A model generated the notes under the pieces. The model did no database searches, was not told the DNA's origin, and saw only the letters and a program-made list of their open reading frames with translations. The translations under genes were made by a program, and so were the position numbers. Positions 1 through 5,727 of a stretch of DNA of 5,727 nucleotides are shown here, in pieces. Origin of the DNA: a virus; the IMG/VR virus record IMGVR_UViG_3300013947_000018, positions 1 through 5,727 of that record; one strand, given 5' to 3'. How positions within the stretch are numbered: the first letter of the stretch is position 1; each line of letters starts with the position of its first letter.

Positions 1-78
1 ACGGAATCAGTTCGCCGGAGTCGAATGTGGTTAAAATGGTCTGGTCTCGCTTGAATGTGCTACGGGACATGTGTTGCT
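1..78. repeat. Terminal redundancy, copy 1 of a 78-nt exact direct repeat (partner 5650-5727). It is the signature of a circular genome linearised with overlap.
   Basis: By direct comparison, acggaatcagttcgccggagtcgaatgtggttaaaatggtctggtctcgcttgaatgtgctacgggacatgtgttgct occurs at 1-78 and again at 5650-5727 with no mismatch. The repeat lies inside the VP1 coding sequence, so it is an assembly or permutation overlap rather than a biological LTR. Confidence 0.95.
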
Positions 79-118
79 GTGGTACGTTTAAGAAGTGTCG
101 TTCATTGTTTCGATTCAT
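1..118 (-). CDS. VP1: 5' end of the major capsid protein VP1 gene, seen across the circular junction. The proposed true start is the ATG at 118..116.
   Basis: The minus strand from 118 reads in frame ATG AAT CGA AAC AAT GAA CGA CAC TTC TTA AAC GTA CCA CAG CAA CAC ATG AGC..., that is MNRNNERHFLNVPQQH followed by MSRSTFKRDQ. This adds 16 codons upstream of the track's start at 70 (=5719). The ATG at 118..116 overlaps the TGA at 117..115 of the upstream ORF (ATGA coupling). A GAAGAGG Shine-Dalgarno sits 7 nt upstream. The ATG at 70 has no SD (CCACAGCAACACATG). From memory, the HF.NVP....RS.F pattern resembles gokushovirus VP1 N-termini. Confidence 0.7.
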   Translation of the reverse strand, partial: MNRNNERHFLNVPQQHMSRSTFKRDQTILTTFDSGELIP

Positions 119-540
119 TCTTTTGCCTCTTCTTTCGTCACTTTGTCATTTGCTTGGCTCTGATCGGCGTCTCTTTTATTGGCCTCTTTCGTCATTTTGC
201 TTAAATTTTGAAGCTCCATTGCTTTTGCCTGTGCGGTTGCAATCATTTTGTGGTATTCGTGAATGTTGGTCGGCCAATTGGTGATATCGATTTCTTCTCC
301 CGTCTGCGTGCCGGCGCTTAATGCTGTAGCAAATTCCGGGTCAAAGCTTGCTTTTCTGACGATGCTTTTAATGTCGCATTCGTCTGCATAGCTTTCAATT
401 TCGGCTTGGATGTCGATTGGTGTGGTTTCCTGTAAATAATCTTCGTTTTTTTCGTTTTTGCTCCAAACGTATTGTTTACGTTCGGTTTTGCCTGATTCAG
501 AAAAGAAGGGCTTTCGCCCTTCCTCATAGGTTTTATTCAT
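115..540 (-). CDS. Internal scaffolding protein, VP3-like, 141 aa from the ATG at 540. The track's 177-aa version starts at a TTG at 648.
   Basis: The ATG at 540..538 is preceded by GGGAGGG with an 8-nt spacer and overlaps the upstream ORF's stop (533..535) by 8 nt. The product MNKTYEEGRK... is acidic and predicted helical. Its motif ADECDIKSIVRKA, followed by an EYH...A.AKA helix, resembles the gokushovirus VP3 (Chlamydia-phage scaffold family) signature D-E-C-D-I-N-x-I as I recall it. The gene sits immediately upstream of VP1. Confidence 0.55.
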   Translation of the reverse strand: MNKTYEEGRKPFFSESGKTERKQYVWSKNEKNEDYLQETTPIDIQAEIESYADECDIKSIVRKASFDPEFATALSAGTQTGEEIDITNWPTNIHEYHKMIATAQAKAMELQNLSKMTKEANKRDADQSQANDKVTKEEAKE

Positions 541-775
541 GTGCTTTGCCCTCCCATACCTTCTCCGGTTCAATGCTGGTGAATTTGCCGGTTTCATCAT
601 CAAAGTCCGCGATGTGATAGCCGGTGTAATCCTGCGGACACTGGCCAATCATGGTTTTTTCGTCTTTTTCCATAATTTCCATCATGCGCCGGAACGTGTT
701 GTTATTTTTATCTTCGCTTACTCGAATGTAGCACTTTGCCTGACGGTCGTAGATGCCATAATACGGATGATTCAT
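533..775 (-). CDS. Small non-structural protein, gokushovirus VP5/ORF5-like, 80 aa.
   Basis: The ATG at 775 is preceded by AAAAGGAGGAAAAACA (a strong SD). The segment PQDYTGYHIADFDDETGKF matches the P-E-D-Y-x-L-x-x-I-G-x-F-D-x-x-T-G pattern I associate with ORF5/VP5 of Chlamydia and Bdellovibrio microviruses. This is recalled, not searched. Confidence 0.5.
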   Translation of the reverse strand: MNHPYYGIYDRQAKCYIRVSEDKNNNTFRRMMEIMEKDEKTMIGQCPQDYTGYHIADFDDETGKFTSIEPEKVWEGKAHE

Positions 776-789
776 TGTTTTTCCTCCTT

Positions 790-912
790 TTACAGTCTGA
801 TGCCACCGCGCATAGGCTTCTGGGTCAGGTTGATTGTTTTGGTCTTGCGTGCAGTTGCGTTGAATATTTTCTTATCTTTTGCCGGATTTGGTTTACTCCG
901 ATGTCGTCCCAT
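790..912 (-). CDS. Unlisted 40-aa, highly basic ORF. Candidate DNA-binding/packaging protein, analogous to phiX174 J or gokushovirus ORF8/VP8.
   Basis: Hand translation of the minus strand gives MGRHRSKPNPAKDKKIFNATARKTKTINLTQKPMRGGIRL* (7 K, 5 R, 1 H, 1 D). The ATG at 912..910 is preceded by GAAGGGAG with a 7-nt spacer. The ORF overlaps the 3' end of the 77-aa ORF by 20 nt. Its TAA (792..790) runs straight into the SD of the next gene. It falls below the length cut-off of the supplied ORF track. Confidence 0.55.
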   Translation of the reverse strand: MGRHRSKPNPAKDKKIFNATARKTKTINLTQKPMRGGIRL

Positions 913-1126
913 CTTTATACTCCCTTCGGATTAGTTCAAGCTCGATACTGTTTGCAAATCTTTTTGCCGCCCAAATTTGATCGACCATTTTTTTTGCGTC
1001 ATCGATGTTGCTTATTTTTCGCAGTAGCTTGAAATCTGCATTTATTTCTTTGTATTTGCATTGTAGTATGTCCATTAGTGATTCTTCGGTCTGGTCTCTG
1101 ACGTTCCATGTTTTGAATTTGTTCAT
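893..1126 (-). CDS. Hypothetical protein, 77 aa, no recognisable family.
   Basis: The ATG at 1126 is preceded by GACAAGGAGTAAAAC (AAGGAG SD). The gene is co-oriented and tightly packed with its neighbours. The product is charged, predicted helical, and has no transmembrane segment. Confidence 0.55.
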   Translation of the reverse strand: MNKFKTWNVRDQTEESLMDILQCKYKEINADFKLLRKISNIDDAKKMVDQIWAAKRFANSIELELIRREYKDGTTSE

Positions 1127-1129
1127 GTT

Positions 1130-1234
1130 TTACTCCTTGTCGTGCAGTGCGTGATAGATTTCGTCAAGCTTTTCTAAAATATCCATCATGAGTTTAATTG
1201 CTTGTTTGACATCTTTGATGCTAATAAGCGCCAT
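1130..1234 (-). CDS. Possible 34-aa micro-ORF (MALISIKDVKQAIKLMMDILEKLDEIYHALHDKE).
   Basis: The ATG at 1234..1232 lies 3 nt after the peptidase stop and is preceded by AAAGGGGGTATAAAAA. Its TAA (1132..1130) lies 3 nt before the next ATG, and the next gene's SD is embedded in its last codons. It exactly fills an otherwise non-coding gap. Evidence is positional only. Confidence 0.35.
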   Translation of the reverse strand: MALISIKDVKQAIKLMMDILEKLDEIYHALHDKE

Positions 1235-1237
1235 TTT

Positions 1238-1627
1238 TTATACCCCCTTTCTATACTTTACTTCTCGGACGTCTACGTGGACAAAATTGCTGTAACGGAT
1301 AACCCCGCCGTAGTTTTCCATGAGTTCGTCCGCGTATTTTGCAATTAGGCCTGTGCTGACTCCCTTGATTCGGATATCTGCGGCCATGCCTTTGCAATGA
1401 TAACTATTTCCGCTTCCACCTACTGTGCTATTCCAGCTTGGCGTTCTGTAGCCGCTGTTGATGATTACAGGTTTGCTGAAGTGTTCGCGGATTTGTTCCA
1501 GGATTGCGATTAGATCGGTACTCACCAATAATTCGTCGCTTCCGTCTTTGGAGGCCATTTCTTTTGCGTTGAAGTGTTCACTTACATTTCCGAAACTTCT
1601 GTTGATGCAATAAATGAGTGTTGCCAT
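1238..1627 (-). CDS. Zinc D,D- or L,D-peptidase of the M15/LAS superfamily (Peptidase_M15_3 / VanY-like). Putative peptidoglycan hydrolase (endolysin), 129 aa from the ATG at 1627.
   Basis: The metal-binding signature S-x-H-x-x-G-x-A-x-D is present as SYHCKGMAAD (1405..1376). The distal ligand motif is present as FVHVDVR, and a preceding SGYRTPSWN motif is also there. I prefer the ATG at 1627 because GAAGAGGTGG lies 6 nt upstream and the sigma70 promoter lies about 80 nt upstream. The track's start at 1816 has no SD, lies inside the iteron array, and is upstream of that promoter. Confidence 0.85.
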   Translation of the reverse strand: MATLIYCINRSFGNVSEHFNAKEMASKDGSDELLVSTDLIAILEQIREHFSKPVIINSGYRTPSWNSTVGGSGNSYHCKGMAADIRIKGVSTGLIAKYADELMENYGGVIRYSNFVHVDVREVKYRKGV

Positions 1628-1706
1628 GTTTACCACCTCTTCAATTGTCAATGTTTTCGCTTTCACTGATGAAATGAGCTGTCCAGCCAAGCTCCTTGCA
1701 CTTTCT

Positions 1707-1735
1707 ATTTTAATGTTTACCTGCGTCGAAGTCAA
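1707..1735 (-). promoter_or_regulatory. Sigma70-type promoter driving the whole minus-strand gene block.
   Basis: The minus strand reads AAAAAAAACC TTGACT TCGACGCAGGTAAACAT TAAAAT AGAAAG. The -35 TTGACT is at 1735..1730, the spacer is 17 nt, and the -10 TAAAAT is at 1712..1707. An A-tract (UP-like) lies just upstream. It is the only such match I found in the non-coding region, though my scan was not exhaustive. Confidence 0.6.
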
Positions 1736-1803
1736 GGTTTTTTTTGCGTATGCGAAAAAAATTTTGAGTTCGGCACAGGTTGCCCGCCGCAGGCGAGTTT
1801 TCA

Positions 1804-1834
1804 ACACTTTCAACATTTCAACAAGTTTTCAACA
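1804..1834. repeat. 31-nt direct repeat, copy A (acactttcaacatttcaacaagttttcaaca).
   Basis: It matches 1868-1898 at 30/31 positions (c to t at position 26). The period is 64 nt. Confidence 0.9.
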
Positions 1835-1840
1835 TAAATA

Positions 1841-1860
1841 TGCACAAAGGCTTTTGTGCA
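1841..1860. other. Perfect hairpin/palindrome TGCACAAA-GGCT-TTTGTGCA, centred between the two 31-nt repeats.
   Basis: The 8-bp stem is 1841-1848 paired with 1853-1860, and the 4-nt loop is 1849-1852. All pairs are Watson-Crick. Confidence 0.8.
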
Positions 1861-1867
1861 ATTTGCT

Positions 1868-1898
1868 ACACTTTCAACATTTCAACAAGTTTTTAACA
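1868..1898. repeat. 31-nt direct repeat, copy B (acactttcaacatttcaacaagtttttaaca).
   Basis: 30/31 identity to 1804-1834. Confidence 0.9.
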
Positions 1899-2010
1899 AA
1901 ACTTTCAACATGAAAATTCTTTAGAATTTTACGCTTTAACGTTCATTTTTAGTGGTTTTCAACTTTTTCACATACACTACTACTACGACTACAACAAGTT
2001 AGAAAAATAT

Positions 2011-2057
2011 TGCGCGCGCGCGCACGTGCGCGCTTCGTGCGCGTGTGCGCGTGCGCT
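2011..2057. repeat. Alternating purine-pyrimidine (CG/TG)n tract, Z-DNA-prone, that can fold into a long hairpin.
   Basis: 2011-2033 (tgcgcgcgcgcgcacgtgcgcgc) is 23 nt of perfect R/Y alternation. 2036-2056 (cgtgcgcgtgtgcgcgtgcgc) is 21 nt of the same. Only tt separates them. 2018-2033 is a 16-nt perfect palindrome (gcgcgcacgtgcgcgc). 2014-2033 can pair with 2037-2056. The tract sits in an otherwise AT-rich spacer and is flanked on both sides by AAATAT. Confidence 0.9.
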
Positions 2058-2065
2058 CTAAATAT

Positions 2066-2103
2066 AGAAAAAAGCCCAGTACTTACTTGATAGGTACTGG
2101 GCT
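2066..2103 (-). terminator. Rho-independent terminator ending the VP1-VP2-VP4 transcript.
   Basis: The minus strand reads AGCCCAGTAC-CTATCAAGTAA-GTACTGGGCT followed by TTTTTC. The 10-bp perfect stem is 2073-2082 paired with 2094-2103, and the loop is 11 nt. The hairpin begins 12 nt after the VP4 stop codon (2118..2116). Confidence 0.8.
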
Positions 2104-2115
2104 AGGTGACACCGA

Positions 2116-3135
2116 TTAGAGAATTCCACGTTTTTTTGATGATTTTTTAATTACTCGTTCTTTAGTCTTTAGTTCGTTCCAGTAATCATGGTTTTCATAT
2201 TTTAATCGGCTTTCTTCGATTAGTTTTCTTTGCCTTTCGCGTTTGATTTCCCACAGTCTTTGTGGGTTTTCCTGTTCCATCATTTTTTCGTAGTATCTTG
2301 GTATCTGTGCTCTTTTTCCGTTGCTACACTGTATATAGCCTTTATTCCAGATTTCTTCTTTGTGTTTTTGGTAGTATTCATCTCCAAGCCCCGGTTTTAG
2401 GCTCATGCATGCAAATGGCTTTGGTTGTCCCAATTCGTAATATACATTTGCTTTTTCACCGTTAAACTCGTACATTTTTTTGGTTACATATCCCGCTACA
2501 TACCTGTATGTTTCCGGTACTGCCTGTGCAATTTGAATATTGCCCATGCCCCATAGATTAGACATCCATTTACTTGTGAAATATCCGTTGTGTCTGGTTT
2601 TGTAGAGATGTTTTAGGTCTGTTGGTTTCCAACCATATAAGATCATGTGATAGTGTGGTCTTGCTGTTTGTTCTCCGTACTCTCCTGCACAGAAATAACG
2701 TAATTTTCCCTTGCTGGCTTTCCTGAGGCGTTTTAGGAATTTTTGAATGTCTGTATACAGTAGAATTTGAACCGCGTCAGGCGCTTTGCTAGAGCCATTC
2801 CAGACGTATTGCGCTTTTCGCACTATTTCGCCTGTTTTAAGTATCATTCCCGGCACGTGTTCATCATCGTATGTTAGAGTGATAAACCATACTTCATCCG
2901 GTGTGTAGTTCCGTGCTTCTAGTTCTATTCTTGTTGTCCAATCTTCCCGCTGTCTGATTCTGCATCCGATGCATTGCCCACACGGAATTAGCATTACTCT
3001 TTGATTGTACATTACATCTTCATATTTTAGCTGTTTTCCGGATAATTCAGAAAAGCGGGCAAGTGTATACACCCGCCCGCTGATTTCTTTGTTTTCCGGG
3101 TTGTACAGCCTGATTAAAGGCTTGTAACAACTCAT
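2116..3135 (-). CDS. VP4: Replication initiation protein VP4: HUH rolling-circle endonuclease, phiX174 gpA family, 339 aa.
   Basis: Microvirus Rep motifs are present. These are PCGQCIGCR (Cys cluster), FITLTYDD (motif 1), PHYHMILYG (HUH motif, with H161 and H163 at 2655..2647) and YRYVAGYVTKK (paired catalytic tyrosines Y-x-x-x-Y, 2508..2476; compare phiX174 YVAKYVNK). The start overlaps the VP2 stop as ATGA (3135..3132). Confidence 0.95.
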   Translation of the reverse strand: MSCYKPLIRLYNPENKEISGRVYTLARFSELSGKQLKYEDVMYNQRVMLIPCGQCIGCRIRQREDWTTRIELEARNYTPDEVWFITLTYDDEHVPGMILKTGEIVRKAQYVWNGSSKAPDAVQILLYTDIQKFLKRLRKASKGKLRYFCAGEYGEQTARPHYHMILYGWKPTDLKHLYKTRHNGYFTSKWMSNLWGMGNIQIAQAVPETYRYVAGYVTKKMYEFNGEKANVYYELGQPKPFACMSLKPGLGDEYYQKHKEEIWNKGYIQCSNGKRAQIPRYYEKMMEQENPQRLWEIKRERQRKLIEESRLKYENHDYWNELKTKERVIKKSSKKRGIL

Positions 3136-4013
3136 TTTCCGTATTTCCCCCTAAGTTTGATTCCTGCTTTCATTCCTTCATTCAAGGCGAGTGATGTTGG
3201 TAAGCTTATTCCCGTTTTTCCTGATAAGTTTGCCGCTTTTTGCGTTGTCTCCATGCCTTTTTTGATTCCACCCTTTACGGCTCCACCGATGTCTTTGCCG
3301 ATTTCGCTTAGTGCTTCGGATAGTCCTTTTGCTGACATGTGTGTTTCACTTTGCATTTTATTCCAGCTTTGTGCCGCGTTGTACCAGTCTGATTCGCTCC
3401 AACTTTGTGCGCTGTATGAATTTGGAACAAATCCGCTTGCTCTACTTACTCCTAGTGCACTACTCGATGTTAGCCCCATACTTGCACCGCTGATTGTGCC
3501 GGCGCTCCCGCCCGGTGTGCTTGCTCCGCCGTTTGCGAATGCTAGAATTGGATTAAGTCCGGCCGCTTTCATGTCTTCTACGGCTCTTTGATAGCTCGTG
3601 TTTGACATTTTTTCCTGCCATTCTCGATTTGCTAGCGCTTCCGCACTGTTGTAGTTCATTGCCACACTATTTTCGATGTGATTATATATGCCTTGCATGA
3701 GTGCTCCAAGCGTATTGTATCCCATTTGCATTAGTGTTGCTCTCATGTTGTTTTTTACTTGGTTTTGTCCTTCCGTGTTTTGGTAATTGTACGCATTGTT
3801 TAGCCATTCTTCGATTTGTTTATCGTTTGTTCCGCTTGTGCTCCCGCTTCTGCTTGATCCACCGCCCTGCTGTGTACTTCCACCTGAGCTTTGCGAACTT
3901 CCTTCTTGTCCCCAGTTGCCGAACGCTTGCCCAAGGCTTCCGATTGCACTTCCTACGGTTCCTACGGTGCTTGCGATTGCTCCAATTGTCGCTAGCGTTT
4001 CTGTGATTGCCAT
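3132..4013 (-). CDS. VP2: Minor capsid / DNA pilot protein VP2, 293 aa.
   Basis: The conserved core NREWQEKMSNTSYQRAVEDMKAAGLNPILAF is the hallmark microvirus VP2 block (T-x-Y-Q-R ... D-M-K-x-A-G-L-N-P). The N-terminus is hydrophobic and glycine-striped, followed by a Gly/Ser/Gln low-complexity linker. The gene lies directly after VP1. Confidence 0.9.
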   Translation of the reverse strand: MAITETLATIGAIASTVGTVGSAIGSLGQAFGNWGQEGSSQSSGGSTQQGGGSSRSGSTSGTNDKQIEEWLNNAYNYQNTEGQNQVKNNMRATLMQMGYNTLGALMQGIYNHIENSVAMNYNSAEALANREWQEKMSNTSYQRAVEDMKAAGLNPILAFANGGASTPGGSAGTISGASMGLTSSSALGVSRASGFVPNSYSAQSWSESDWYNAAQSWNKMQSETHMSAKGLSEALSEIGKDIGGAVKGGIKKGMETTQKAANLSGKTGISLPTSLALNEGMKAGIKLRGKYGK

Positions 4014-4047
4014 AATAATATAGCCCCGTTTCCGGGGCTTCCTCCTT
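4014..4047 (-). promoter_or_regulatory. VP1-VP2 intercistronic element: an AAGGAGG Shine-Dalgarno separated from the VP2 ATG by a stable GAAA-tetraloop hairpin.
   Basis: The minus strand reads TAA AAGA AAGGAGG A AGCCCCG-GAAA-CGGGGCT ATATTATT ATG. The SD is at 4047..4041. The 7-bp G/C-rich stem is 4039..4033 paired with 4028..4022. An 8-nt tail runs to the ATG at 4013. Confidence 0.7.
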
Positions 4048-4051
4048 TCTT

Positions 4052-5719
4052 TTAGATTTTGTCGAGACCCGGCACGCTGTAAAGTGGCATTACTCGCGTT
4101 GTTTTGTTGCTGATTTGGATCCCGCCAAAGAATTGCGGTTCATCCTGTACGATTAGCGTTCTTGCAATTTCGGTTTTGCCTTCGCTCATCCATTCCTGTG
4201 ACAGTGTCGGCACGGTCGAATAGTTGTCTCCATAGTGCCAGAAGTCTAGTGTCCCTTCTGCATTGCTTCGCATTTTTCCGCTGATTCGGTTCGGCTTCAT
4301 GCGGTAATCTGCCCATGCTTCTTGATAACCAAATGTTTCCTCGTCAGTCGTATTACCTGTGAGCATGATCTCTTTCTTCTTAACAGGCTGTTCGCCCAGA
4401 TTAGCAAACTGTGGCACATAGTAGTCCAGTCTGTCTCTACGGCTCCACATGCGTTCCAGTCCCTGCTGATAGCTCCGATTATGACGTACACACATTACGC
4501 CGATGATCCATCCATGTTCTTCGAAGCTCTTCGTGAAACTGCTTTCGTTGATGGGTGTTACTGACATTGCACCAGTTTCGCCAATAGGTGTATTGGTTTC
4601 TGTGTTCGCCGCACTAGTCTGTACAATCTGATTCATATTTACATGGTAGCGACCGCCTCCCAGATATTCCGGAATCTGTACAGTTTTATCGCTGATTTCG
4701 GTACCCCAGATTGCCCGAATTTGTTCACGGTACCGACTGCCACCGCGTGCTAGTGCTTCATAGTAGTGCTGTACTGCGATTGCCTGCCGTAGCTCATTGA
4801 TTGTCACCGCGTTTACACTGCTGAGGTCTGTTGCTAGATGTCCACTGATAGCGGTTCCTGCTTTGTTTAGATAATTGACTCGATTCCATCCGTCCAAACT
4901 ATTTACATACCATGTCTGAAGTGTTCCATCACCGCTTAAATTAGGTTTATTTGCGCCGATCCAATATTGGTTATTTTCAAGTGAGCCGTCTTCATTCTCA
5001 TAGATTACGTTTGCGTTTCCCGTCATTGGGATATTAACCTCCGGTCCTCGCTGAGGATACGGCAGACAGCTCGTGAAATAGTCGTGGAATTTGTTGACAG
5101 GCAGACAGCGACCGCCGGTGATTGCGTTCGTTAGAATGTCGTCCATGGATGAGTATTTGCTGTCTGTGTAGTCTACATTTGTGTCGCTTTTAATCCAGGT
5201 TGCTTCATTTTCTACGTTCTGATCTCTGAAAAATTCATTCCAGATCATAACGTATGCTCTGACTGGCAGCGCGTTTACTTCAAAAGTACTGGTGCTGTTT
5301 TTTTCGCCTAGGATGTGCGTCGGTACGCCCATGTAGTCCAATATGCTTCCCGTTCTCGGGTTATCTTCATCGTCGACGGGTTCTGCATAAACGGCATTAG
5401 GGGCGATTTTTGTAGGCTGTCGGATTGTGATTGTTGGTACTTTATATTCTCTTTCTGGCATCCACGGTGTTCCTTCTACTTCTCCCATGAACTGCTTCCA
5501 GTGTTCCCACAAGATGCGGTTAGGCGCATAGAAGTAATAGATGTCAATAAAACTGTCATCCATTACCGGGTATTTCGGTGTAGTCATTCGGATGATCGCG
5601 CTTGTGTTTACTCGGAATGTGTCATTGGGAAGTACTTCATCAACGTAGAACGGAATCAGTTCGCCGGAGTCGAATGTGGTTAAAATGGTCTGGTCTCGCT
5701 TGAATGTGCTACGGGACAT
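4052..5719 (-). CDS. VP1: Major capsid protein VP1 (Microviridae F-protein family). 555 aa in the window, about 571 aa if started at the wrap-around ATG (window position 118).
   Basis: The N-terminal block RSTFKRDQ..TTFDSGELIPFYVDEVLPNDTF...MTTPKYPVMDDSFIDIYYFYAPNRILWEHW matches the canonical microvirus capsid signature (RS-F ... G-x-L-I-P ... E-V-L-P-G-D-T ... F-F-V-P-x-R-x-x-W). The size is typical of gokushovirus VP1. The reading frame stays open to the window end (5727) and continues at 79-118. Confidence 0.95.
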   Translation of the reverse strand: MSRSTFKRDQTILTTFDSGELIPFYVDEVLPNDTFRVNTSAIIRMTTPKYPVMDDSFIDIYYFYAPNRILWEHWKQFMGEVEGTPWMPEREYKVPTITIRQPTKIAPNAVYAEPVDDEDNPRTGSILDYMGVPTHILGEKNSTSTFEVNALPVRAYVMIWNEFFRDQNVENEATWIKSDTNVDYTDSKYSSMDDILTNAITGGRCLPVNKFHDYFTSCLPYPQRGPEVNIPMTGNANVIYENEDGSLENNQYWIGANKPNLSGDGTLQTWYVNSLDGWNRVNYLNKAGTAISGHLATDLSSVNAVTINELRQAIAVQHYYEALARGGSRYREQIRAIWGTEISDKTVQIPEYLGGGRYHVNMNQIVQTSAANTETNTPIGETGAMSVTPINESSFTKSFEEHGWIIGVMCVRHNRSYQQGLERMWSRRDRLDYYVPQFANLGEQPVKKKEIMLTGNTTDEETFGYQEAWADYRMKPNRISGKMRSNAEGTLDFWHYGDNYSTVPTLSQEWMSEGKTEIARTLIVQDEPQFFGGIQISNKTTRVMPLYSVPGLDKI

Positions 5720-5727
5720 GTGTTGCT
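5650..5727. repeat. Terminal redundancy, copy 2 (identical to 1-78). The unit genome length is 5,649 nt.
   Basis: Exact 78/78 identity with the window start. Confidence 0.95.

Follow-up and report, generated by a model that had tools for sequence, protein, structure and literature searches.

Rolling-circle origins and the intergenic block of a gokushovirus

In the rolling-circle replication of phiX174, the strand that is nicked is also the strand that is displaced and packaged. The phiX174 origin (4305/4306) is a linear 30-bp site within gene A, on the coding (viral) strand, where protein A cleaves CAACTTG↓ATA (the arrow marks the cut); the phiX174 record annotates its rep_origin at 4306, a position that we checked and that lies in CAACTTG↓ATATTAATAAC (sequence CAACTTGATA). 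The origins of circular Rep-encoding single-stranded DNA (CRESS-DNA) viruses consist of a stem-loop with a conserved nonanucleotide, and their iterons abut the stem, have a fixed orientation, and co-vary with the replication protein (Rep). In pMV158 (PMC1851628), a nick hairpin (nic) is accompanied by a separate direct-repeat block (‘bind’) of three 11-nt repeats located tens of bases away. Here, we compare these systems with positions 1628–2115 of a 5,727-nt stretch of viral DNA (positions 1 to 5,727 of IMG/VR record IMGVR_UViG_3300013947_000018, hereafter the window), which is the complete circular genome of a gokushovirus of the gut type. This block of 488 nt lies between the gene for VP4, a rolling-circle Rep of the HUH class, and the gene for a peptidase; it contains a hairpin, which we name H1, and a repeat-rich cassette of about 200 nt.

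Comparison of the locus among relatives resolves the block into modules that differ in their evolutionary behavior. In coding-strand order, these are H1, two CG/CA tracts, the cassette, a small GC hairpin, a long imperfect hairpin, a promoter, and a leader with a Shine–Dalgarno (SD) sequence. An earlier note, made from the sequence of the window by itself, had listed sub-elements that are all present at the coding-strand places it gave and had suggested that origin and transcription signals are concentrated in the block, an idea that is supported in general. The block is probably the main cis-acting control region of the genome, built of separable modules, and we likewise consider it probable that these modules include H1 as a nick hairpin, the cassette as its accessory, and the promoter. 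Both statements are read from sequence comparison, for which 188 related loci were collected; the hairpin was counted over 189 loci of the superclade to which the window belongs.

The hairpin after VP4 and its homologs

H1 spans 2073–2103 and reads AGCCCAGTAC-TTACTTGATAG-GTACTGGGCT on the plus strand. It is the longest perfect hairpin of the genome and folds as DNA with a z-score of −5.25 (about −5 on either strand). The loop TTACTTGATAG (2083–2093 on the plus strand; CTATCAAGTAA on the complementary strand) contains ACTTG↓AT and accounts for the sole ACTTGAT of the window. By analogy with phiX174, the predicted VP4 nick would fall between G2089 and A2090 of the plus strand. The conserved 3′ flank AGGTGACACC follows on the same strand at 2104–2113, while a run of five T residues follows H1 on the minus strand, at 2072–2068.

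The hairpin is present in 185 of the 189 superclade loci, and the TGACAC of its 3′ flank is nearly invariant. Three lineages carry H1 after VP4, with VP4 proteins that are 75–100%, 52–53%, and 46–49% identical to that of the window. Their stems are entirely different (AGCCCAGTACC, CACTCAGCCAAGTA, and AGTGGGCCTAATCC), and they have in common a loop core, CTATCAAG on the coding strand or CTTGATAG on the opposite strand, in which CTTGAT is constant. In a fourth lineage, whose VP4 is 35–38% identical, the homologous hairpin has stems GGCCCAAG or CCGGCACAAG and a loop whose complement is CTTGTCTAT, with GGTGTCAAC in front of it; all three of the genomes examined have this hairpin immediately 5′ of the VP4 ATG. 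Pairing is maintained as the stems change. In an alignment of 25 sequences, both partners have changed in 8 of 16 pairs, the paired fraction of cells is 89% versus 23–50% in controls with the partner slid, and none of 500 shuffles reached the observed covariation score; these counts, like the wobble counts given below, are not phylogenetically independent.

The classical gokushoviruses carry the same element. Each of the genomes of Chp2, SpV4, and phiMH2K carries TACTTG in the loop of its strongest perfect hairpin (loops TCTACTTGAT, ATTACTTGTTATA, and GGACCCTACTTGTTGTAA, respectively), which lies at 2904–2941 in Chp2, 512–544 in SpV4, and 3296–3335 in phiMH2K. The 3′ flank of the Chp2 hairpin, CTAGGTGA, is found at the same place as the flank of H1 and is the same flank. 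We also inspected a diverse panel of 80 gokushoviruses, with Reps 38–89% identical to that of Chp2, and about 58 of them have a perfect stem of at least 8 bp enclosing the loop (T)ACTTGAT(GT).

The likeness to phiX174 concerns site, enzyme, and location. The H1 loop contains the phiX174 cleavage sequence ACTTG↓ATA. VP4 has YVAGYVTKK and HYH where protein A has YVAKYVNKK and HFH (LHFHAV), so that both Reps combine an HUH motif with the two-tyrosine motif YVAxYVxKK. In both phages the site lies beside or within the rep gene. The architecture differs: the phiX174 site is linear and on the coding strand, whereas the motif in H1 is displayed in the loop of a 10–13-bp intergenic hairpin and is read on the non-coding strand. 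We regard H1 as the best origin candidate of this genome and as a homolog of an ACTTGAT-loop hairpin that appears to be Gokushovirinae-wide. Because the loop is kept in phages of Chlamydia, Spiroplasma, Bdellovibrio, and gut bacteria, recognition by a conserved phage Rep fits better than recognition by host factors. The earlier note had placed one or more replication origins in the block; an origin-like element is indeed there, but the role had been assigned to the wrong parts of the block and to the opposite strand.

H1 could instead be a complementary-strand origin, a single-stranded DNA hairpin that serves host primase, primosome, or RNA polymerase and is not nicked by Rep. PMC9865509, which describes conserved hairpins of uncertain function in other microvirus clades, proposes this role for microvirus intergenic hairpins by analogy with phiX174 and G4, and the excess of G·T over A·C in the stem (see below) indicates that the hairpin matters in single-stranded form. 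We consider this explanation unlikely: a loop kept across phages of divergent hosts is better matched to a conserved Rep, and its sequence equals the experimentally known cleavage sequence of the phiX174 Rep. A complementary-strand origin would likewise have to be on the packaged strand, and the argument on polarity made below would be unchanged.

The earlier note had read H1 as the terminator hairpin of VP4. In its full form, this explanation makes H1 a plain terminator and places the origin in an array of GTTGAAA iterons with a central hairpin, bound by Rep as in CRESS-DNA viruses or iteron plasmids. H1 does resemble a Rho-independent terminator in this genome, in that its GC-containing stem leads into TTTTT on the coding strand, and the iteron-like repeats are real and flank a hairpin. 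However, terminators do not keep an invariant 11-nt loop over unrelated, covarying stems, and the loop of H1 matches the phiX174 nick site. A T-run (at least five T in 8 nt) follows the hairpin in 46% of close relatives, and is thus absent from the other 54%, in 65% of the 46–53% group, and in 0% of the distant group, where the hairpin lies upstream of VP4 and could not terminate it. The same hairpin is carried by Chp2, SpV4, and phiMH2K at other genome positions. As for the array, its central hairpin is not conserved, its orientation flips, and its repeats do not co-vary with Rep. We judge this combination of roles improbable; at most, H1 and its T-run may serve here, in a secondary role, as an intrinsic terminator for VP4 transcription.

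Polarity and the packaged strand

The nick motif has opposite polarity, relative to the genes, in the window and in the classical gokushoviruses. ACTTG is read on the coding strand in Chp2, SpV4, phiMH2K, and all 58 forward panel genomes, whereas in the window and the whole superclade (185 of 189 loci) it is read on the non-coding strand, and CTTGAT is absent from the window coding strand throughout. The coding strand had previously been taken as the functional one, which does not agree with the location of the motif. Just two of the 80 panel genomes, L238 and L241, have an inverted hairpin. These genomes of ~4.5 kb have a VP4 that is ~34% identical and lack the cassette; since they form a separate lineage, the inversion probably arose at least twice.

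Base composition at fourfold sites of the coding strand was compared with this polarity. The window has A at 0.51 and T at 0.13, and the range over the window and all 188 related loci is 0.39–0.53 for A with T about 0.12, which mirrors the T-rich coding strands of phiX174 (T at 0.59), Chp2 (0.51), and SpV4 (0.65). L238 and L241 resemble the window, with A at 0.43–0.48 and T at 0.06–0.08. The fourfold AT skew reaches a maximum of +0.47 in the 58 forward genomes, and the means of the inverted lineages run from +0.54 to +0.73. T-richness like that of phiX174, Chp2, and SpV4 has been reported for single-stranded DNA phages as an NNT bias, with C-to-T pressure on the single strand given as its cause (PMC3278643). 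Skew does not predict hairpin polarity cleanly: it fails for L256, L291, L311, and phiMH2K, which combine a forward hairpin with an A-rich coding strand, and we use it as supporting evidence only.

The stem itself holds a second asymmetry. On the ACTTG strand, G·T outnumbers A·C inside the stem by 18:1 in the superclade and by 9:1 in the forward genomes, an excess expected if the ACTTG strand folds, or mutates, as single-stranded DNA.

Two ways of retaining a conventional polarity, or of explaining the unusual one, were considered and rejected. A forward origin elsewhere in the genome finds no place on a coding strand without CTTGAT, and the hairpin at 3054–3081 within VP4 keeps ACTTG in only 23 of 99 relatives. 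The orientation of the cassette does not set the packaged strand, since genomes with forward and inverted cassettes have the same fourfold skew.

If the phiX174 rule applies, a nick site in H1 means that the packaged strand is the complement of the mRNAs. The superclade, and independently L238 and L241, would then encapsidate a strand complementary to their mRNAs and could be called “negative-sense” microviruses. The mirrored fourfold composition and the G·T excess in the stem are indirect indicators in agreement with it. We put this proposal forward tentatively, as one that might go either way and that we hold as slightly more doubtful than not.

The accessory cassette

The cassette is a conserved unit of ~200 nt at 2000–1798 on the minus strand. 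It begins with AACTTGTTGTAG (2000–1989) and TCGTAGTAGTAG (1988–1977), which include a GTAG-periodic stretch (1996–1977), and continues with TGTGAAAAA (1972–1964) and with eight copies of GTTGAAA and one GTTAAAA (1963–1799), arranged in two clusters 64 nt apart. The eight GTTGAAA copies lie on one strand, although about one is expected in the whole window, and none of 200 shuffles reached eight. The profile of 141 distinct copies consists of TAACTTGTTGTAG-TCGTAGTAGTAG, ATGTGRAAAAGTTGAAAAC, and two groups of four repeats on either side of a variable spacer, and a 24-nt pattern, AACTTGTTGTAGNNGTAGTAGTAG, recurs in at least 119 viral contigs. What had been described as a triplet-periodic stretch and an iteron array are parts of this one cassette. 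An AT palindrome (1930–1913, minus strand) and a central hairpin (1860–1841, minus strand) also lie here; both are present, as the earlier note had seen, but neither is conserved.

Three configurations of the cassette were found. In 123 distinct genomes, the cassette lies after VP4 in forward orientation, as in the window. In 5 distinct genomes, it lies after VP4 in inverted orientation, with both flanks unchanged. In 20 distinct genomes of the distant lineage, it is inverted, and it is located between VP2 and VP4 in the three that were mapped. The cassette is always ~60–230 nt from H1 and not beside a promoter. The same repeats accompany VP4 proteins of 35–100% identity and do not co-vary with Rep, and the orientation of the cassette has no effect on strand skew. 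L238, L241, and the classical gokushoviruses lack the cassette, and all of them keep the hairpin.

These observations bear on what the cassette may do. Because its orientation varies without an effect on skew, the cassette is unlikely to work in a strand-specific way, for example as a nick site or as an origin on single-stranded DNA. Because either orientation and either side of Rep occur, the cassette would act on double-stranded DNA, and its simplest reading is a protein-binding array that works on the double-stranded replicative form. The array with its hairpin is not a Rep-specific iteron origin of the classical kind: the repeats stay constant beside Reps of 35–100% identity, and the cassette may face either way and may precede or follow VP4.

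Repeats near a nick hairpin are familiar from other systems. The pMV158 arrangement (PMC1851628) resembles that of H1 and the cassette, but its three 11-nt repeats compare with nine 7–8-nt repeats here. In addition, the block described here varies in orientation and side, its repeats are constant despite the divergence of Rep, and Rep is only a candidate for the protein that binds it. The CRESS-DNA virus origins are similar in that a hairpin loop carries a conserved nick motif for an HUH Rep with direct repeats nearby; they differ in the nick motif, and the repeats of the cassette are neither fixed in orientation nor co-varying with Rep.

The cassette holds an ACTTG of its own, and TAACTTG↓TTGTAG might be the true Rep cleavage site, as a linear, phiX-like origin, with H1 left to another role. 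In favor of this explanation, AACTTG is the phiX174 core, ACTTGTTGTA matches the phiMH2K loop exactly and the SpV4 loop at 9 of 10 positions, and in this genome the coding strand carries the motif, which would keep the conventional polarity. Yet ~25 of 148 distinct genomes have an inverted cassette with no change in skew, the hairpin occurs without the cassette in L238, L241, and the classical gokushoviruses, and this motif is not in a hairpin, unlike the ACTTG of every other gokushovirus examined, which is in a loop. We find it improbable that the cassette has replaced the hairpin in this way. Finally, the orientation independence of the cassette is typical of autonomous genes, but a small protein or small RNA gene with its own signals is very improbable, given a longest stop-free stretch of 41 of 71 codons in any frame, with 16% of copies open throughout, no Pfam, PHROG, or Rfam match, a repeat spacing of 8–12 nt that is incompatible with coding, and repeats without conserved secondary structure.

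DnaA boxes were considered separately. An array of DnaA boxes was rejected because the enrichment is not significant: the consensus TTWTNCACA has one match in the window, TGTGAAAAA at 1964–1972, versus 0.76 expected. The GTTGAAA repeats differ from the relaxed DnaA-box consensus by one mismatch. Perfect DnaA boxes (TGTGGATAA) occur only in the unrelated genomes L238 (~1590) and L241 (~4620–4643 and 60–76, with two boxes in tandem), in the non-coding region beside the inverted ACTTGAT hairpin, where they hint at recruitment of the host initiator.

Alternating purine–pyrimidine tracts

Between H1 and the cassette, two tracts of 21 and 23 nt (2056–2036 and 2033–2011, readable on either strand), separated by AA, alternate strictly between purine and pyrimidine in CG and CA steps. 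The relatives carry 95 distinct versions, usually as two tracts, with CG, CA, and TG steps interchanging freely. When the cassette was used as an independent anchor in 88 relatives, the 60 nt upstream of it had a fraction of alternating steps of 0.75, versus 0.50 in control windows. The tracts are optional; they are missing from many genomes of the 46–49% and 35–38% lineages and may be found on either side of the cassette.

In the window, the tracts fold into a hairpin of −26.8 kcal/mol. A specific hairpin was nevertheless rejected because folding of the tracts shows no advantage over shuffles with the purine–pyrimidine alternation preserved (mean z-score +0.17). What is kept is alternation and GC-richness, not particular pairing. 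Uninterrupted CG/CA alternation of at least ~12–14 bp is the sequence criterion for a Z-DNA tract, and both runs exceed this length. The tracts thus resemble known d(CG)n/d(CA)n Z-DNA tracts but differ in that the same sequence also folds into a hairpin of −27 kcal/mol and is optional in the clade; they are predicted to be prone both to Z-DNA and to a very stable hairpin. A literature search found nothing relevant on Z-DNA in Microviridae.

The promoter side

Directly after the cassette, a small GC hairpin, CGCC-TGC-GGCG (1795–1785, minus strand), is kept in relatives in the form CGCC-NNN-GGCG. It is followed by a long imperfect hairpin or inverted repeat (1780–1719, minus strand) with 29-nt arms that are 79% complementary and a fold of −13.4 kcal/mol (z-score −3.8). 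A/T tracts lie at ~1765–1736 on the minus strand, and the 3′ arm of the long hairpin holds the −35 hexamer of the promoter. The lower stem of this hairpin differs among relatives yet stays complementary.

The promoter TTGACT-17-TAAAAT (1735–1707, minus strand) is of the sigma-70 type, matches at 10 of 12 positions, and is the best in the window. A match of at least 10/12 upstream of the peptidase was found in 55 of 104 relatives, versus a mean best match of 7.5 in shuffled sequences; the commonest −35 hexamer of the relatives is TTGACA, and 38 of the 104 have a TG before the −10 hexamer. The 5′ leader would be ~70 nt long (1700–1628, minus strand), with the SD sequence GAGGTGG at 1639–1633, and it is shorter in most relatives. 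The earlier note had predicted a promoter in the block, which is borne out by the conservation of both the promoter and the short peptidase start described below. The promoter is predicted to serve the peptidase and the downstream genes.

About half of the loci, the window not among them, have a conserved but unrelated element of ~85 nt with fixed polarity, ACGCGCACAGCGCTAAAAAGGAATGGATTAGCCGAGTTCCGC...GGCGCTAAAGCGCC (for example L005 ~4010–4095, L049, and L156 3266–3350). It replaces the hairpins between cassette and promoter, or lies directly after VP4 in the distant lineage, and it has no Rfam match.

Non-coding status of the block

Hidden coding in the block was rejected on several grounds. 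An upstream extension of the peptidase open reading frame (ORF) by 63 codons stays open over 60 codons or more in just 8 of 104 distinct relatives, so that a conserved long peptidase N-terminus across 1628–1816, which the earlier note had named as the finding that would shrink the block, was looked for and is absent from nearly all of them. An SD-supported ATG is found at the position homologous to 1627 in 97 of the 104, and the PF08291 domain lies wholly inside the short form of the peptidase, downstream of Met64 of the long ORF. The ORFs of the block, on both strands, have no match to a Pfam or PHROG family, and the frames of the cassette are not kept open.

A known RNA family in the block was likewise rejected. 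A search of Rfam at E values up to 1 found no match in the window, except for a sub-threshold one at 3018–3085 inside VP4, and none in five relatives. That match coincides with a 12-bp hairpin, AGCGGGCGGGTG-TATA-CACTTGCCCGCT, followed by TTTTCT (3048–3086, minus strand), which lies in codons ~17–29, ~55 nt after the VP4 start. This hairpin is conserved in 99 distinct relatives, and compensatory changes preserve its pairing even when the protein is altered (Ala to Ser, Ala to Val). The structure resembles a terminator or attenuator within the gene that would limit Rep expression.

An attachment (dif-like) site or prophage junction was rejected because a Rep-based scan of 185,579 reference genomes gave no integrated relative. 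A scan of the reference genomes with the cassette motif returned one mis-binned free genome (L190) and one chance match (L191) without microvirus genes or repeats. L190 (CAVKUS010000079.1, 5,739 nt) is a complete relative of the distant lineage, binned in a metagenome-assembled genome labeled Bacteroides sp. CAG:545, which is either a weak hint of the host or a binning artefact. A gokushovirus Rep is also carried by contigs that far exceed one genome unit, namely L266 (30.5 kb) and L006, L025, and L033 (8.8–10.9 kb), which may be concatemers, chimeras, or integrated copies.

The genome around the block

The genome unit is 5,649 nt, and the window includes a terminal redundancy of 78 nt: the exact repeat at 1–78 and 5650–5727 is an assembly signature of circularity and not a biological repeat. 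The closest annotated records are pig and human fecal Microviridae, with ~75–80% nucleotide identity over parts of the genome, and ~60 GenBank microvirus records match window positions 1793–2139, mostly at 60–90% identity.

Every recognizable gene is on the minus strand. The VP1 capsid gene (4052–5719; Pfam Phage_F, E value 2e-130) and VP2 (3132–4013, assigned by position) are separated by a 38-nt gap that contains the hairpin AGCCCCG-GAAA-CGGGGCT (4022–4039, minus strand), which is terminator-like with a weak T-run, ATATTATTAT. VP4 (2116–3135; Pfam PF23343) has the HUH motif PHYHMILY together with the catalytic YVAGYVTKK. The M15 peptidase or endolysin, in its short form of 129 residues (1238–1627), matches Pfam PF08291 (E value 9e-23) and the endolysin family phrog_894 (E value 7.5e-36). 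ORF5 (533–775; Pfam Phage_ORF5) and the VP3 scaffold gene (115–648; Pfam Chlamy_scaf) complete the set. A 40-residue ORF at 790–912 (minus strand) matches phrog_10695, a family of unknown function, with an E value of 2e-9 and is probably a real small gene.

Exactly 488 nt separate the VP4 stop codon (2116–2118) from the SD-supported ATG of the peptidase (1627), in agreement with the earlier note, and the small gaps and overlaps that it described at all other gene junctions are confirmed. Its description of the block as unusually large holds within this genome but not within the clade, where the equivalent gap measures 409–991 nt in 56 relatives. The block is also rich in potential structure, as 8 of the 11 perfect hairpins of the genome with a stem of at least 7 bp fall within 1738–2103.

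A proposed model of the control region

We propose the following model for how these modules may work together. H1 would be the rolling-circle origin and would extrude or melt in the supercoiled replicative form. Its loop would then present ACTTG↓AT to VP4, an HUH Rep of the Y-x3-Y type, which would cleave the loop as protein A cleaves its own site in phiX174, and the flanking TGACAC probably contributes to recognition. With the nick motif on the plus strand of the window, the displaced and packaged strand would be complementary to the mRNAs. The cassette, with AACTTGTTGTAG, GTAGTAGTAG, and its nine GTTGAAA-type repeats, lies ~70 nt from H1 and would be an accessory array on double-stranded DNA, to which either Rep or a host factor could bind. 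The CG/CA tracts would be an optional spacer, prone to Z-DNA and hairpin formation. On the far side, the hairpin, the sigma-70-type promoter, and the leader would initiate transcription of the peptidase gene (lysis) and of the genes that follow it, and H1 with its T-run may in addition end the VP4 transcript.

The kind of element is a known one, namely a nick hairpin for an HUH Rep with accessory repeats. Three features appear new: the hairpin points the opposite way to the genes, the cassette is portable and can face in either direction, and the spacer prone to Z-DNA may be present or absent.

Several points weigh against this model. Descriptions of the Microviridae name the coding strand as the one that is packaged. 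The origin of phiX174 does not lie in a hairpin, and VP4 cleavage at the H1 loop is inferred by analogy only. Literature searches found no paper describing this hairpin, its function, or the ACTTGAT motif, and no experimentally defined origin for any gokushovirus. The T-run that follows H1 in this genome is what a terminator would have. The ACTTG of the cassette, in AACTTGTTGTA, resembles the phiMH2K and SpV4 loops and could be a second or alternative cleavage site. With regard to polarity, the independent inverted lineages number only two, and phiMH2K and three panel genomes pair a forward hairpin with an A-rich coding strand.

Implications for the gokushoviruses

Gokushoviruses are among the most abundant single-stranded DNA phages in gut and environmental viromes, and the ACTTGAT-loop hairpin gives the whole subfamily a specific origin candidate. 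The inverted polarity of the hairpin in this superclade offers a test of the view that microviruses package the coding strand. Polarity also matters for strand-specific virome libraries, for studies of mutational skew and codon usage, and for the building of replicons or synthetic genomes. If the model is true, the origin of these phages would be served by a portable cassette of ~200 nt that acts in either orientation. The cassette and the optional Z-DNA-prone tract show that non-coding modules are shuffled among lineages whose Reps are only 35% identical.

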